Positions 31,101 through 57,700 of a stretch of 64,000 nt of DNA are shown one piece after another (within the stretch, counting starts at the first letter, position 1; each line of letters begins with the position of its first letter). A program made the position numbers and the translations under genes. Below the pieces are notes generated by a model. The model was given only the letters and a program-made list of their open reading frames with translations. It was not told the DNA's origin and searched no databases. This DNA is from Eledone cirrhosa (taxonomy: Eukaryota), in assembly GCA_964016885.1 (NCBI GenBank), contig OZ024754.1, positions 36,642,001 to 36,706,000 on the forward strand, read 5' to 3'.

Positions 31101-31510
31101 TCGTGCCACATATGAGGCTGTGTCCCCATTAGTGCTTTGGAAACCACAAGCAGTCACTAATAAAAGGGGGCACAAGCTCTCCTATCCCAATTTGCTGGCC
31201 ACTGCCATCATGCTACCTATGAGGCTGTGTCCCCATCAGTGCTTTGGAAACCACAAGCAGTCACTAATAAAAGGGGGCACAAGCTCTCCTATCCCAATTT
31301 GCTGGCCACTGCCATCGTGCCACATATGCGGCTGTGTCCCCATTAGTGCTTTGGAAACCACAAGCAGTCACTAATAAAAGGGGGCGCAAGTTTTCCTATC
31401 CCGATGTCATCTCCAGAGATTCTGGTATTGAAATCCAGGATTTGACAACGGCAATGAACGACAGACCCACGTGGAGATCAATTGTTGAGTCGATTTCGGC
31501 TGAGGCCGCC

Positions 31511-32896: not shown

Positions 32897-35800
32897 CTAC
32901 AGAACAATGTAGAGAGAAGGCCCATTTACACGGGCCATTCTCGCTTCTTTCACCCACCTTTCATAAAACTGTCTGGGACCAAGCACTTCTCTCTCCATCC
33001 TGATTCTTCTTCCGAAGTGGTATCGGAAGAAGTAAACCAGGTGATGGCCGGAGAGAGAGTCACCCGACCTCAGACCTTTCAGGCGCGTCCACCACACAAC
33101 CTCTTTCATCATGGCTATTACGCACAGAAAGACCGCCTCTGCTTCATTTCTGAAGGGAGGAGGCGGCTTGATGTTCACCACAGACTCGGCGGTTAATCGA
33201 ATCGGCGCCACACGCGACAGCAGTCGTTCGACGTAGCCCCACAGATCGGCAACGCCCGGGCAGTGTACCAGTTCATGCGCAACGGTTTCCTCGTCGCGCA
33301 CGCATCTGGGACAGATCTTTTTCGCGGGATCCCTGCCCGGGCGCCCGTGTCTGTAGAGCTTTTCTCGAACGGGCAGAGCCCCCCGGTAACACTGCCAGGC
33401 TAGGGACCTCTGGAAGTTGTCCATGGGTCCCGGGCCGAAAGTTCTACCGAACAGGCTGGCCGGTTCGTCCTCCTCCATGCCTAGCGACTCTCCAAGGGTG
33501 TCGTCGCCCCTGCTAGCCACCAACCCTCTATAGAATGTCGAGGTGGATTCTCCACTGACAGTCGGGTCCGCTTGCCAGATAGCCGTGAGCGCCTGGGCAC
33601 ACTCAGTGTGCCAGTTGCCCAGTTTTCTCGGTCTTTGCTTCACCCAGGATTGCAGTTCGGTGAGCGAGACGAGCTGTGGGAAGGCTCGCCTCACAAACGG
33701 GGCCCACACCGGCTGACCGTTGAGGAATACCTGTAGATGCCGTAGCCTCAATGCGTGCCTACGCATCAACAGCCACGGCATACCCAGCCCTCCTTTCGAA
33801 GGGTGCTGGCAGCAGATGGATCTCCTCACCATGGGAGGCCGCTTCTTCCAGAGGAACTGGAAGAGTATGCGTTCCATGATGGTGAGCTTTTCCTTGGGGC
33901 AAGGCACGACGGTCAGGCGGTAGTAGATGACGGACGCTATGTAAGCGTTCGTCACCTCCGCCCGACCTTTCAGTGATAGTTTGCACTTGGCCCACTTCTG
34001 GGTCAGCGCAAACACCCTGCTCGTCACCTCGCCCCAATTCTTCTCCACCTGGAGGTCCGGTCCGAACCAGACCCCGAGCAGCTTCACCGGGCCCTCCGTC
34101 CACCGCCCGACGACACCGTCTAACGGCATCGGTTTGCCCCTCCACGTTCCGAGTTGCAAACCGACTGACTTGTCCTGGTTCAGCTTAGCCCCCGTCAGCC
34201 TTTCGTATTCCTCCAGTAGGGTGGCGATCGCCCCGATTTCCGAGGCGTCCGCCACCATTACTGTTACGTCGTCGGCATAGGCCGAGACCGCTTTGTGCAA
34301 TCCCGGTTCCAGGGGTATGCCCCGCAGCAACTCCAACTTCCGCAGCAGTGGCTCGAGAGTCAATACGTACAGAAGGGAGGAGAGGGGGCACCCCTGTCTG
34401 ATGGATCGGGTGATTTGAAACGGCTCCGAGAGGTAGCCGTTTACTTTAATCCTAGAGTAGATGTTGCCACTGTGCATGGCAGAAATCCAGCCCCTGAAAA
34501 CGGGTCCGAAGCCCGCCGCCGCTAGCACCGCATCCAGGTAACCATGGTCGACCCTATCGAACGCCTTAGATTGATCCAAGTTGATCAGGGCCCCACCAAA
34601 GCCGGGTTCGTAGCCAACCCTCTCTATGATGTATCGCATGAGGTGGAGGTTGTCGTGAATGGACCTGGACGGGATAGCGCATGTCTGCGCGTTTCCCACC
34701 AAACCACCCACCACAAGCGCCAACCTCTTCGCCAACACCTTGGCCAAAATCTGTAACTCTGCATTCAGCAGAGTTATGGGCCTAAAGTTACTTAAGTCGT
34801 CCCCCTTGCTCTCGTCCTTCCTCACTAGCGTGACCACGCCCTTGGTCACAGAACAGGGAATTCTCCCGTTCTGTTGCCAGTTGCAATAGACAGCCTCGAG
34901 GAGTTCGGAGAACAAGACCGGCATAGCTAAATAAAGTTCGTATGGTAGACCATCGAGACCCGGGGATTTGCGTCTGCTGCATTGGCTGAGCGCTTCCCCG
35001 ATTTCAGTGGCTGTGATTGGCCTTTCGCAGCACTCCGCTTCGCCGCTCGAAAGACGCGGTAGACCGTCGAGGTATGGACGGAAGTCCACATCCCCGTCCG
35101 GCCCCCCGCCACCTCCGAACAGTCGAGCAAAGTGCCTTTGAAAGGTCTCGCACATTCGCTCAGGTTCAAGGATCACCCGTCCATCCTGGTCTCGCAAAGA
35201 CCGAATGGTGGATTTAATCCCACTCTTGGCTTCTGTCACGCGGGCCCAGCTAACAGCTTTGGTCCCCTCGTTTCCTAAAGCACGTATTTTACTTCGGACA
35301 ACGCAGCCTTCGTGCTTCGCGTCAAAGAACTGGCTCAATGCCGTTCTCGTCGCTAACACTCTGGCTACGTCTCCGCTCCTAATCGCCTCTTCTAGTTTAT
35401 CTGTTAACTCCCTTTCCCTCCTATTTCTATTCGCCGCTAGTTCCTTACTGTAACCTATCGAACTTACTCTAATCTCTCTCTTTAGAGATATCCACCACCT
35501 ACTATTGACGATCGCTCCCGTCAACCGCATCTTAACTAAGCTACTAATCCGGTTTCTGTAATCTTTCTTTGTCGGTAAGGACAAGTTCATCTTCCAGTAA
35601 CCGGGACCCTGTCTATGCGTTCTATCAAGGTTGACCACGCAGGTCACTAATTTGTGATCTGAATAGCCAACCATGATCAGTTCTGGACAACTAAATACGT
35701 CCCTATCCTTACTCCTAACCAAAAACCTATCTAGGTACGATCTAGATTGTCCACTGCGGTTTGCCCAGGTCCAGGTTGGCGCAGTTGGACAATCTAGTCG

Positions 35801-36332
35801 AAATCTATCGACCAGGTCGAATCGATCGAGTAACCCCTTGAGGCTGCTACACCCCCCTCTATCGGGACATGCCCCTGCATAGTCCCAACGCGCATCTAGG
35901 ATTCCATTCCAGTCCCCCACTAAAAGCAGGGAACGCGACGTTCCTAGAAAAGTCTCCAGACGTTGGAAGAAGTCGGCTCTTTCCGCCCCGAAGGGAGCAT
36001 AAAGACCGACCAGTCTGAAAGCCCCGCCTTCACCGCCTCCGACGTCCAGCACCAGTAATCGACCCCCCGGGTCCGAGTGAACAATCTGTACGTCGAGAGT
36101 CAGACGTTTATCCAGCAGTACGGCAACTCCCCCCCCCCCCCCCGCCTCCGGGTTGACAGAGAGATGCGTGCATCTCAAAGTCATCGAAGGCGGGCGCCAG
36201 CTGTCTCACGCTGCTGATCCGACTCTCGCAAACAACCATCACATCTATACTTTGTGACCTGAGGTCACTTAGAAGCTTTGCTTGCTTCCAAGCTGAGCCC
36301 AGGCCACGCGCGTTCAAACAGCCAACTCTCAA
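32897..36332 (-). CDS. LINE ORF2: APE endonuclease, reverse transcriptase and C-terminal zinc finger (one frameshift in the C15 run at 36129-36143)
   Basis: APE motifs: CLNARGL, VCES, GGVAVL, VGDWNG, YLDRFL, SDHK. RT motifs: KSPGLDG, FRPITLLN, DQSKAFDRV, RQGCPLS, AYADD. Zinc finger: CPRC...ETVAHELVHC. Joins track ORFs 36108-36332 and 32897-36184. Confidence 0.95.
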
Positions 36333-51223: not shown

Positions 51224-51397
51224 TGGTAGCGGGTGGTGTATTGACTAAGGATCCAATGTCGGAAAACCAATGCAATATCGGAAAACCAAAGCGGTGGATA
51301 AAGGATTAACATATATATATGTATGTATATATATATATATATACATATGTATATATATATTAATACACACACACACACACATATATATATATTATAT

Positions 51398-51455
<58 letters not shown>

Positions 51456-51788
51456 ATTCAAAATATTAATAAATGAATACGTTCACATAATCAAAATATA
51501 TGTTTTATTATATATATTTCGGAGGTATTGTGCTGTTTTTTCTGTACGTCCTCATCAGATAAAATATATGAATTGATGTATGACATACGTCAACTGTCTT
51601 GATGGTCCAATTCCAGTATTGGCAGTGCTGGAATTGGACCATCAAGACAGTTGACGTATGTCATACATCAATTCATATATTTTATCTGATGAGGACGTAC
51701 TGAAAAAACAGCACAATACCTCCGAAATATATATAATAAAACATATATTTTGATTATGGGAACGTATTCATTTATTAATATTTTGAAT
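51456..51788. ncRNA. 333-bp palindrome with a type I hammerhead in each arm (minus 51498-51569, plus 51675-51746)
   Basis: Plus arm: stem I ATATATTTTAT/ATAAAACATAT, CTGATGA 51686-51692, stem II GGAcGTA...TACcTCC, GAAA 51724-51727, palindromic TATATA, then TA. Confidence 0.82.
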
Positions 51789-51789
51789 A

Positions 51790-51867
<78 letters not shown>

Positions 51868-51870
51868 AAA

Positions 51871-51919
<49 letters not shown>

Positions 51920-51926
51920 CATATAT

Positions 51927-53732
51927 ATTGGAATAAATGCTCTGAAATAGCGATATATATGTGAATATAGACATAGAATATTCGAAAATATTCTGTATGT
52001 TTATAATAAACATTTTGAAGACCTAATCGCTATAGAATAGAATACGTCACGTATTACAATTAGATTCTCGATAAAAGCAAGGGAAGTAATCTACGCGTTT
52101 CATTCTCGTTAGAAATCATCAGGACTACATATCCAGTGCTTTTATCGAGAATGACACAGCTAGAGACTTATAGAATACTTAGCTGTGTACAGGAACTGGT
52201 TTGAAAGAGCGGTTGCCGGTCCGGCAGAAATTAGAAATTGGAATAAATGCTCTGAAATAGCGATATATATGTGAATATAGACATAGAATATTCGAAAATA
52301 TTCTGTATGTTTATAATAAACATTTTGAAGACCTAATCGCTATAGAATAGAATACGTCACGTATTACAATTAGATTCTCGATAAAAGCAAGGGAAGTAAT
52401 CTACGCGTTTCATTCTCGTTAGAAATCATCAGGACTACATATCCAGTGCTTTTATCGAGAATGACACAGCTAGAGACTTATAGAATACTTAGCTGTGTAC
52501 AGGAACTGGTTTGAAAGAGCGGTTGCCGGTCCGGCAGAAATTAGAAATTGGAATAAATGCTCTGAAATAGCGATATATATGTGAATATAGACATAGAATA
52601 TTCGAAAATATTCTGTATGTTTATAATAAACATTTTGAAGACCTAATCGCTATAGAATAGAATACGTCACGTATTACAATTAGATTCTCGATAAAAGCAA
52701 GGGAAGTAATCTACGCGTTTCATTCTCGTTAGAAATCATCAGGACTACATATCCAGTGCTTTTATCGAGAATGACACAGCTAGAGACTTATAGAATACTT
52801 AGCTGTGTACAGGAACTGGTTTGAAAGAGCGGTTGCCGGTCCGGCAGAAATTAGAAATTGGAATAAATGCTCTGAAATAGCGATATATATGTGAATATAG
52901 ACATAGAATATTCGAAAATATTCTGTATGTTTATAATAAACATTTTGAAGACCTAATCGCTATAGAATAGAATACGTCACGTATTACAATTAGATTCTCG
53001 ATAAAAGCAAGGGAAGTAATCTACGCGTTTCATTCTCGTTAGAAATCATCAGGACTACATATCCAGTGCTTTTATCGAGAATGACACAGCTAGAGACTTA
53101 TAGAATACTTAGCTGTGTACAGGAACTGGTTTGAAAGAGCGGTTGCCGGTCCGGCAGAAATTAGAAATTGGAATAAATGCTCTGAAATAGCGATATATAT
53201 GTGAATATAGACATAGAATATTCGAAAATATTCTGTATGTTTATAATAAACATTTTGAAGACCTAATCGCTATAGAATAGAATACGTCACGTATTACAAT
53301 TAGATTCTCGATAAAAGCAAGGGAAGTAATCTACGCGTTTCATTCTCGTTAGAAATCATCAGGACTACATATCCAGTGCTTTTATCGAGAATGACACAGC
53401 TAGAGACTTATAGAATACTTAGCTGTGTACAGGAACTGGTTTGAAAGAGCGGTTGCCGGTCCGGCAGAAATTAGAAATTGGAATAAATGCTCTGAAATAG
53501 CGATATATATGTGAATATAGACATAGAATATTCGAAAATATTCTGTATGTTTATAATAAACATTTTGAAGACCTAATCGCTATAGAATAGAATACGTCAC
53601 GTATTACAATTAGATTCTCGATAAAAGCAAGGGAAGTAATCTACGCGTTTCATTCTCGTTAGAAATCATCAGGACTACATATCCAGTGCTTTTATCGAGA
53701 ATGACACAGCTAGAGACTTATAGAATACTTAG
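51927..53732 (-). mobile_element. Tandem array of 5.8 identical 310-bp units, each with a type I hammerhead ribozyme (non-LTR retrozyme-like)
   Basis: Units start at 51927, 52237, 52547, 52857, 53167 and 53477. The minus strand reads GTAGTC-CTGATGA-TTTCTAACGAGAAT-GAAA-CGCG-TA-GATTAC at 52086-52128 and every +310. Confidence 0.9.
52086..52128 (-). ncRNA. Type I hammerhead ribozyme (first of six; others at 52396, 52706, 53016, 53326, 53636)
   Basis: Complete core CUGAUGA/GAAA/GUA, 6-bp stem I, TTCT/AGAA stem II with AACG loop, palindromic CGCG stem III. Predicted cut between 52092 and 52091. Confidence 0.88.
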
Positions 53733-53734
53733 GA

Positions 53735-54063
53735 CTATGTCTATATTCACATATATATCGCTATTTCAGAGCATTTATTCCAATTTTTAATTTCTGCCGG
53801 ACCGGCAACCGCTCTTTCAAACCAGTTCCTGTACACAGCTAAGTATTCTATAAGTCTCTAGCTGTGTCATACTCGATAAAAGCACTGGATATGTAGTCCT
53901 GATGATTTCTAACGAGAATGAAACGCGTAGATTACTTCCCTTGCTTTTATCGAGAATCTAATTGTAATACGTGACGTATTCTATTCTATAGCGATTAGGT
54001 CTTCAAAATGTTTATTATAAACATACAGAATATTTTCGAATATTCTATGTCTATATTCACATA
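53735..54063 (+). mobile_element. Inverted 1.06-unit copy of the 310-bp repeat, with a hammerhead on the plus strand (53893-53935)
   Basis: Reverse complement of the unit, terminally redundant (ctatgtctatattcacata at both ends), with two substitutions relative to the array. Confidence 0.92.
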
Positions 54064-54064
54064 C

Positions 54065-54097
<33 letters not shown>

Positions 54098-54100
54098 AAA

Positions 54101-54214
<114 letters not shown>

Positions 54215-54224
54215 ATATAATATA

Positions 54225-54274
<50 letters not shown>

Positions 54275-54278
54275 TATG

Positions 54279-54314
<36 letters not shown>

Positions 54315-54327
54315 AATATATATTATA

Positions 54328-54380
<53 letters not shown>

Positions 54381-54405
54381 TTTATATATATATAATATAT
54401 ATATG

Positions 54406-54466
<61 letters not shown>

Positions 54467-54469
54467 TTT

Positions 54470-54552
<83 letters not shown>

Positions 54553-54576
54553 TATGTGTATGTATTAATATTAATA

Positions 54577-54712: not shown

Positions 54713-57700
54713 GTTAACTATTCAGCCATGCCTGAGATTGAACCCAAGCCCTCATAGTTGGGAGGTGACCTTCTTAACCTCTCAACCATGCCTGGGATTG
54801 AACCCAAGGTCTCATAGTTGGGAGGCGACCTTCTTAACCTCTCAACCATGCCTGGGATTGAACCCAAGGTCTCATAGTTGGGAGGCGACCTCCTTAACCT
54901 CTCAGCCATGCCTGGGATTGAACCCAAGGTCTCATAGTTGGGAGGCGACCTTCTTAACCTCTCAGCCATGCCTGGGATTGAACCCAAGGTCTCATAGTTG
55001 GGAGGCGACCTTCTTAACCTCACAGCCATGCCTGGGATTGAACCCAAGGTCTCATAGTTGGGAGGCGACCTTCTTAACCTCACAGCCATGCCTGGGATTG
55101 AACCCAAGCCCTCATAGTTGGGAGGCAACCTTCTTAACCTCTCAGCCATGCCTGAGATTGAACCCAAGCCCTCATAGTTGGGAGGCGACCTCCTTAACCT
55201 CTCAGCCATGCCTGGGATTGAACCCAAGGTCTCATAGTTGGGAGGCGACCTTCTTAACCTCACAGCCATGCCTGGGATTGAACCCAAGCCCTCATAGTTG
55301 GGAGGCAACCTTCTTAACCTCTCAGCCATGCCTGGGATTGACCCAAGGTCTCATAGTTGGGAGGCGACCTCCTTAACCTCTCAGCCATGCCTGAGATTGA
55401 ACCCAAGCCCTCATAGTTGGGAGGCGACCTTCTTAACCTCTCAACCATGCCTGGGATTGAACCCAAGGTCTCATAGTTGGGAGGCGACCTCCTTAACCTC
55501 TCAGCCATGCCTGGGATTGAACTCAAGGCCTCATAGTTGGGAGGCGACCTCCTTAACCTCTCAGCCATGCCTGGGATTGAACCCAAGGTCTCATAGTTAG
55601 GAGGCGACCTCCTTAACCTCTCAGCCATGCCTGGGATTGAACTCAAGGCCTCATAGTTGGGAGGCGACCTTCTTAACCTCTCAGCCATGCCTGGGATTGA
55701 ACCCAAGGTCTCATAGTTGGGAGGCGACCTCCTTAACCTCTCAGCCATGCCTGGGATTGAACTCAAGGCCTCATAGTTGGGAGGCGACCTTCTTAACCTC
55801 TCAACCATGCCTGGGATTGAACTCAAGGCCTCATAGTTGGGAGGCGAACTTCTTAACCTCTCAGCCATGCCTGGGATTGAACCCGTCCCTCATAGTTGGG
55901 AGGCGACCTTCTTAACCTCTCAACCATGCCTGGGATTGAACTCAAGGCCTCATAGTTGGGAGGCAACCTTCTTAACCTCTCAAACATGCCTGGGATTGAA
56001 CCCGGCCCTCATAGTTGGGAGGCGACCTTCTTAACCTCTCAGCCATGCCTGGGATTGAACCCGTCCCTCATAGTTGGGAGGCGACCTTCTTAACCTCTCA
56101 ACCATGCCTGGGATTGAACTCAAGGCCTCATAGTTGGGAGGCGACCTTCTTAACCTCTCAACCATGCCTGGGATTGAACCCGGCCCTCATAGTTGGGAGG
56201 CGACCTTCTTAACCTCTCAGCCATGCCTGGGATTGAACCCAGCCCTCATAGTTGGGAGGCGACCTCCTTAACCTCTCAGCCATGCCTGGGATTGAACCCG
56301 TCCCTCATAGTTGGGAGGCGACCTTCTTAACCTCTCAGCCATGCCTGGGATTGAACCCAGCCCTCATAGTTGGGAGGCGACCTTCTTAACCTCTTAGCCA
56401 TGCCTGGGATTGAACCCAAGCCCTCATAGTTGGGAGGCGACCTTCTTAACCTCTCAACCATGCCTGGGATTGAACCCAAGCCCTCATAGTTGGGAGGCGA
56501 CCTTCTTAACCTCTCAACCATGCCTGGGATTGAACCCAAGCCCTCATAGTTGGGAGGCGACCTCCTTAACCTCTCAGCCATGCCTGGGATTGAACCCAGC
56601 CCTCATAGTTGGGAGGCGACCTTCTTAACCTCTCAGCCATGCCTGGGATTGAACCCAGGCCTCATAGTTGGGAGGCGACCTTCTTAACCTCTCAGCCATG
56701 CCTGGGATTGAACCCAGGCCTCATAGTTGGGAGGCGACCTTCTTAACCTCTCAGCCATGCCTGGGATTGAACCCAGGCCTCATAGTTGGGAGGCGACCTT
56801 CTTAACCTCTCAGCCATGCCTGGGATTGAACTCAAGCCTCATAGTTGGGAGGCAACCTTCTTAACCTCTCAACCATGCCTGGGATTGAACTCAAGCCTCA
56901 TAGTTGGGAGGCGACCTTCTTAACCTCACAGCCATGCCTGGGATTGAACCCAGGCCTCATAGTTGGGAGGCAACCTTCTTAACCTCTCAACCATGCCTGG
57001 GATTGAACTCAAGCCTCATAGTTGGGAGGCGACCTTCTTAACCTCACAGCCATGCCTGGGATTGAACCCAGGCCTCATAGTTGGGAGGCGACCTTCTTAA
57101 CCTCTCAGCCATGCCTGGGATTGAACTCAAGCCTCATAGTTGGGAGGCAACCTTCTTAACCTCTCAACCATGCCTGGGATTGAACTCAAGCCTCATAGTT
57201 GGGAGGCGACCTTCTTAACCTCACAGCCATGCCTGGGATTGAACCCAGGCCTCATAGTTGGGAGGCGACCTCCTTAACCTCTCAGCCATGCCTGGGATTG
57301 AACCCAGGCCTCATAGTTGGGAGGCGACCTTCTTAACCTCTCAGCCATGCCTGGGATTGAACCCAAGCCCTCATAGTTGGGAGGCAACCTTCTTAACCTC
57401 TCAGCCATGCCTGGGATTGAACCCAGGCCTCATAGTTGGGAGGCGACCTTCTTAACCTCTCAACCATGCCTGGGATTGAACCCGTCCCTCATAGTTGGGA
57501 GGCGACCTTCTTAACCTCTCAACCATGCCTGGGATTGAACTCAGGCCTCATAGTTGGGAGGCGACCTCCTTAACCTCTCAGCCATGCCTGGGATTGAACT
57601 CAAGGCCTCATAGTTGGGAGGCGACCTTCTTAACCTCTCAGCCATGCCTGGGATTGAACCCAGCCCTCATAGTTGGGAGGCGACCTTCTTAACCTCTCAG

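Follow-up and report, generated by a model that had tools for sequence, protein, structure and literature searches.

Two-armed, multi-lap retrozyme insertions in Eledone cirrhosa carry a Penelope-type end signature and were probably copied from one RNA

The window is a 64,000-nt stretch of the Eledone cirrhosa genome (assembly GCA_964016885.1, contig OZ024754.1, positions 36,642,001 to 36,706,000), and positions below are counted from its first letter. It contains a hammerhead-repeat insertion made of an array and an inverted copy that lie head-to-head between (TA)n flanks. The array, arm A, occupies 51927-53732 with its sense on the minus strand; its 1806 nt equal 5.83 units of 310 nt, with zero mismatches to the unit over the full length. 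If phase 1 is the base immediately 3' of the predicted cleavage site, the 5' end of arm A is at phase 220 and its 3' end at phase 165, one of two fixed sites (A) described below. A 2-nt filler, GA at 53733-53734, forms the 5'-to-5' junction with arm B. This inverted copy (53735-54063, plus strand) is 329 nt or 1.06 units long, starts at phase 116 and ends 3' at the other fixed site (B, here phase ~130-139). Two private substitutions set it apart from the unit: C>T at 53787 (phase 168) and T>A at 53871 (phase 252). Only the outer end of arm A carries the stretch between sites B and A (51927-51957, minus strand), which corresponds to the 'tail' of Penelope-type elements as the available text of PMC11167929 and PMC8557442 describes it.

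The (TA)n target tract, read from the sequence, covers 51793-51926 on the left and 54065-54557 on the right. A 12-nt target-site duplication surrounds the whole insertion: 51917-51928 is identical to 54061-54072 (both plus strand), with a single informative base, a C, and its copies overlap arm A by 2 nt and arm B by 3 nt. The C at 54064, an apparent third difference of the inverted copy, is part of this duplication. Because the duplication flanks both arms together, the window insertion is one event. The mapping confirms the layout given in a preliminary description of this DNA, namely an array and an inverted 1.06-unit copy that meet head-to-head at 53732-53735 and run with their outer 3' ends into (TA)n. 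It also agrees that no end coincides with a predicted cleavage site (the end phases are 165, 220, 116 and ~134), and that the inverted copy is in another phase and has two substitutions, the direct units being identical. Such a layout is far beyond chance, and many other loci have it with differing junction phases. The window junction is an ordinary family member, and its value sits in the family-wide pattern.

Each unit contains a predicted type I hammerhead core whose stems could be mapped: a stem I of 6 bp, a stem II of 4 bp with a U-U mismatch at its base, and a palindromic stem III of 2 bp. Cleavage is predicted at six sites in arm A, on the minus strand after 53642, 53332, 53022, 52712, 52402 and 52092. 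The innermost of these hammerheads lies at 53636-53678 (minus strand), and that of arm B at 53893-53935 (plus strand), with cleavage after 53929. Since stem III has only 2 bp, cleavage would need a dimeric fold, and cofolding predicts one. An Rfam search of the unit returned zero hammerhead matches, for the innermost copy as for the rest, and miRNA-like matches under the gathering scores. The unit folds better than 100 of 100 shuffles (z -3.8), and none of 35 fixed variants falls in the 11 core ribozyme bases. It is non-coding, with no open frame above about 60 codons, and is without the reverse transcriptase (RT) and GIY-YIG endonuclease frame of an autonomous Penelope-like element. With G+C at 107/310, one type I hammerhead core per unit, and dispersed non-coding tandem units inside the 150-450 bp and below-50% GC ranges, the family shares these features with metazoan non-LTR retrozymes.

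The same (TA)n tract holds a second, unrelated hammerhead family at 51381-51863, also as a head-to-head inverted repeat; this family has 908 candidates. By eye, both its arms in the window end at the same short site, and at loci L126 and L135 one arm is about 95 nt longer. Elsewhere in the window there is a LINE-type frame of 1101 codons (32897-36205, minus strand) with endonuclease, RVT_1 and zf-RVT matches, and there are tandem arrays at 54742-57670 (59-60 bp units), 28289-31402 (107 bp) and 6614-8484 (22 bp).

In the 3.0 Gb genome the 310-nt family has 16,013 cleavage-site motifs. The forward strand alone holds 831 A and 859 B outer ends, which corresponds to roughly 1,700 insertions. We studied two sets of loci. 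Set 1 consists of 37 loci chosen by BLAST, blind to their ends, and set 2 of 47 loci, covering all pattern-matched ends in C1 1-73 Mb plus one additional locus. Before counting we removed L110 (a second copy of the L093 insertion), L047 (a complex repeated segment of ~6.4 kb with unit pieces inside it) and small extra segments of L068 and L106, and set-1 arms above 4,500 nt were trimmed to their outermost 4,500 nt. Two arms are present at 69 of the 84 loci (33 in set 1, 36 in set 2). The remaining 15 have one arm only, including one that runs beyond the extracted sequence and one that runs into an N gap. The median arm is 3.9 units long and the longest 27, and at 51/65 loci both arms are longer than one unit. 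The two-armed layout is the rule of the family and no artefact.

One apparent regularity was rejected. About 20 set-1 loci seemed to carry 'one scar per insertion' at phase 168, but this is an ascertainment artefact, because the BLAST query itself carried the variant. The variant is absent from every internal set-2 lap, and its 31 matches genome-wide, at 18 loci, all fall within set 1. We also observed a diverged relative of the unit (~76% identical) at L169 2273-2850, which is two-armed, has similar ends and contains an atypical ribozyme-like core.

Each of the two arms of an insertion has its own fixed site for the outer 3' end, and these sites, A and B, are separated by about 35 nt. Site A is at phase 165 in 45/63 loci; site B is at phase 130 in 27/63, and in another 16/63 it is not separable from the TA flank up to phase 139. 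In set 1, 66 of 70 outer ends are at A or B, and the two-armed loci comprise 29 with A+B and 4 with one atypical end. All 36 two-armed loci of set 2 are A+B. Taken together A and B are paired at 65/69 two-armed loci, and the combinations A+A and B+B do not occur in either set. A hand count over C1 1-73 Mb gave 37 A and 43 B ends, among which 32 pairs diverge, every one of them A-B and none A-A or B-B; ends of this region left without a partner were also taken into the sampling, one of them already belonging to set 1.

The inner 5' ends behave differently from the fixed outer ends: they are uniform in phase (Rayleigh p 0.89 and 0.19 for the two sets), and 0/130 lie within 5 nt of the cleavage site. 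Fixed outer ends combined with random inner ends point to Penelope-type internal initiation, and the fixed ends are no argument against retrotransposition. The preliminary description expected start and end phases to be random and took shared fixed termini as evidence against its mechanism. Its expectation holds for the inner 5' ends and fails for the outer 3' ends.

Outer ends adjoin (TA)4 in 138/153 cases. At 17 of 63 loci an informative interruption of the tract lies beside the A end, and it is repeated beside the B end in 7/17 and absent there in 10/17. In this strict test of target duplication the null mean is 0.57 and the null maximum 4 in 2,000. A looser test gives 17/63 against a shuffled mean of 6.7 and a maximum of 13; we rely on the stricter one. 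Together with the head-to-head arms and their outward 3' ends, the duplication supports the earlier proposal of priming from both strands of a TA target. The proposal of multi-lap copying round a template likewise gains support, as the 0/130 inner ends near the cleavage site and the absence of any cleavage site adjoining (TA)n among the 16,013 motifs indicate an unbroken template.

The junctions between the arms (n=67, L059 and L068 excluded) contain fillers or unassigned bases in 26 cases, some of them because exact extension halted at a variant. The 41 filler-free junctions show microhomology of at least 2 nt in 27 cases, where 18% is expected. At the inner junction of L084 a 272-nt unrelated GC-rich sequence has been captured (1349-1620). 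The junctions of L061 and L065 contain reiterated short templated fillers, which we take to resemble polymerase-theta end joining.

The insertions show the signature of Penelope-type integration: a head-to-head inverted 5'-truncated copy (69/84), a tail at one end, and a (TA)n target with a duplication. An intact Penelope-like element of 1240 codons in the same genome has the same head-to-head layout, with two fixed ends (a tail) ~57 nt apart, paired A+B in 3/3 pairs where both ends could be read and again in L166. From its RT, cysteine-linker and GIY-YIG motifs we presume this element to be of Penelope/Neptune-like type. Searches of the Penelope-like proteins of this genome gave no Pfam family, and PDB gave only a weak GIY-YIG match (E 0.26). 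A search for a helper element among two Penelope-like families showed no homology of the 310-nt unit to either of them. The 1240-codon family, seen at L166 3452-7171 (G000 C11) and L136-L171, is young and abundant, its tail lies within the first codons, and its terminal repeat carries a hammerhead-like motif. The second Penelope-like family, with an 830-codon frame, occurs at G000 C6:49529182-49561957 as five tandem copies spaced ~6.65 kb from one another, with an opposed copy after them, and thus forms an autonomous multi-unit head-to-head array.

Next, we compared the two arms of each insertion at diagnostic sites, using arms of at least 330 nt and 13-14 haplotypes per set. The arms match at 29/30 loci in set 1 and 19/21 in set 2. 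Shuffled arm pairs give mean matches of 5.2 and 2.5, with maxima of 13 and 8 in 10,000. The three unmatched loci are the window locus, L045 and the mosaic L101, where arm A has phase 276 changed from A to G in its two inner laps and arm B has G throughout; template switching, gene conversion or editing in time could each account for this. In the window, the double-substitution sequence of arm B occurs once genome-wide, at this locus. At the background rate, an arm of 329 nt would carry two singletons with p ~0.025, which is unremarkable across dozens of loci, and the simplest account of the substitutions is that they arose as errors during copying or by mutation afterwards.

Since the arms match at 48/51 loci and the genome has the double variant nowhere else, the earlier suggestion that the second arm copied a slightly different molecule is unsupported. 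Dual priming on two different RNA molecules, in the sense of the available text of PMC2837659, would account for the window arm at its p of ~0.025, for the differing arms of L045 and L101 and for arm lengths that are independent of each other. It would be viable only if one haplotype dominated the pool of each cell, given the matching arms despite 13-14 haplotypes per set, and we regard it as improbable. That the arms have identical haplotypes would also follow if only one arm had been retrotransposed and the inversion arose by snap-back self-priming (on an antisense template, as in the parts of PMC3846280 available to us) or by DNA fold-back with later tandem expansion. The arms of L037 and of L049 indeed meet at a palindrome, their phases being equal, and the variant of L049 is symmetric about its junction. 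However, the two inner ends lie within 20 nt of each other in phase at only 7/29 and 6/36 loci, where chance gives 3.8 and 4.8, and a fold-back cannot yield a fixed, different second outer end together with a target duplication. As a rule it is therefore rejected, the inner-end phases being no closer than chance; a few palindromic junctions could still fit, and we hold this origin of the insertions to be very improbable. An assembly or polishing artefact, through fold-back chimeric reads or collapsed repeats, can be set aside almost entirely. The window junction was unseen in raw reads, but the two raw Hi-C runs were without any unit read and so constitute no test. At dozens of loci the junction phases are specific to the locus, the ends fall at the fixed sites A and B, and target duplications, microhomology and private haplotypes are seen; a coding element has the same layout.

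Both arms were thus likely copied from the same RNA molecule, and a monomeric circle seems a fairly probable template in most events. The identical haplotypes could also stem from two copies of one parental transcript. The closest alternative keeps the Penelope-type double initiation and dispenses with the circle: the template would be a linear multimeric transcript that comes from a parent array and stays uncleaved, and the two RTs would start within one and the same unit. The weak stem III favours it, and so does PMC11167929, in whose available text unprocessed RNA serves as the predominant substrate and no reads end at the cleavage site. Further, L060 has the same 3-nt deletion, in register, in the first-copied lap of both arms and only there, which makes a strict monomeric circle impossible at that locus and fits one shared multimeric RNA. 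Against it, 17 variant positions at 12/65 loci are private among the sampled loci and fixed in all laps of both arms, which needs a bottleneck of one unit. In the stretches covered in register only 3/78 lap-specific variant positions, a single event, are common to both arms. Arms also reach 27 units, although later duplication may add laps: L083 and L042, two long arrays, contain periodic variants, which indicates that DNA-level duplication contributed some of the laps afterwards. On balance we find the linear multimer unlikely. Arm lengths are uncorrelated (rho 0.02 and 0.21) and so give no support for two RTs moving in step. The fixed variants lean towards A>G (9, against 3 T>C; p 0.035, or p 0.016 against singletons), which weakly suggests a sense RNA stage with editing. 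Phase 1, which directly follows the predicted cut, is altered in individual laps of L064 (3/15) and L083, possibly through errors at a ligated junction.

The reading that we consider probable, as a whole and from sequence, is that of a non-LTR retrozyme insertion whose two head-to-head arms were made by a Penelope-like RT/endonuclease that primed on both (TA)n strands and copied one RNA, probably a monomeric circle. Its firmest part is Penelope-type priming from both target ends, in which we have high confidence. Arrays would be transcribed, cut by their hammerheads and closed into 310-nt circles. Both target strands would then be nicked ~10-15 nt apart, as the target duplication suggests. One target end would start at A (phase 165) and the other at B (~phase 130), as the footprint records; both ends at the same site were never seen in the examined loci. 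How many laps each RT makes, displacing strands as it goes, would be random and independent of the other RT. Finally the cDNA 3' ends would be joined at random phases via microhomology of 2-5 nt or short fillers, again a step seen as a footprint. Runs X1, X2, X10 and X12, which have different organism codes, each contain one closed 310-nt contig of the family, a form that fits a circle or a tandem array alike. Three of these four also show traces of host repeats, and the contigs are compatible with carry-over. Run X5 has 6,447 contigs matching the region, some of them B-end junctions to (TA)n.

Cervera and de la Pena (2020, available text of PMC7229834) propose that retrozyme circles are copied into tandem cDNA by RTs that probably belong to Penelope-like elements. 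Li, Clavereau and Pollet (2026, bioRxiv 10.64898/2026.07.22.740005) tie retrozymes to terminal repeats by homology and, in the part available, call the mechanism unresolved; mobilisation by Penelope-like elements via circular RNA is proposed in these sources. The metazoan non-LTR retrozymes described there share with our family the ~300-nt non-coding tandem units, the low GC and one type I hammerhead each. Their published arrays are head-to-tail only, as far as the available text goes ('inverted' has 0 matches in that of PMC7229834), and insertion ends are not analysed in it, whereas here nearly all insertions have two opposed multi-lap arms and two fixed ends.

Endonuclease-bearing (EN+) Penelope-like elements are described with an inverted 5'-truncated copy and a tail of 30-40 bp at one end (available text of PMC8557442 and PMC3846280), with which the 35-nt offset between A and B agrees. 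The accessible portion of PMC11167929 reports two internal RT start sites that bracket the tail, nicking and extension of both target strands, a predicted dimer, and uncleaved RNA as the main substrate in vitro. These elements resemble our family in the head-to-head layout, the tail at one end, AT-rich or (TA)n targets, duplications of ~10 nt and ends unrelated to the ribozyme cut. In contrast to them, the family is without an ORF and both its arms are multi-lap concatemers, and the tail, optional in what is available of the Penelope papers, is here an almost constant feature through the A and B pairing. That the junction phases are random speaks against the model of antisense self-priming in PMC3846280. 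L1 twin and dual priming, both defined in the available part of PMC2837659, are alike in that both target ends prime and that an inverted junction with microhomology and a target duplication result. L1 twin priming, however, gives non-overlapping pieces with an internal deletion, whereas our insertions have no poly(A), a second site that does not vary, and arms whose sequences overlap completely. Twin priming, which the preliminary description had invoked, is in its L1 form excluded by the last two features. Non-autonomous Chlamys elements such as MRC1 (PMC8557442) are also Penelope-type and form multicopy head-to-tail insertions, but their clade is without canonical hammerheads, and a two-armed multi-lap rule is not described in the available text. 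We found no description of two-armed multi-lap retrozyme insertions with paired Penelope ends in the open full-text literature, supplements aside; two figures may be relevant to this point, that of the life cycle in PMC7229834 and that of genomic ends in PMC11167929.

The available sources leave two questions unsettled: by what route retrozymes get into genomes, and what makes Penelope elements produce inverted head-to-head copies that are tailed at one end. The insertions of this family, young, polymorphic and multi-lap, preserve for more than 1,000 events where copying started, which template was used and how the ends were joined. Testable predictions follow from them: A ends should pair with B ends, the two arms should share a template, and a 310-nt circle should yield multi-lap cDNA. 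More tentatively, and somewhat short of what we would call probable, Penelope integration in general may be an asymmetric two-headed reaction, in which a dimeric RT-endonuclease engages both nicked target ends at a pair of defined sites in a single RNA; with a retrozyme circle as template, each head would do rolling-circle reverse transcription, with mutual strand displacement. If this is true, the Penelope tail, the head-to-head inversion and the retrozyme arrays would share one mechanism, without antisense self-priming.
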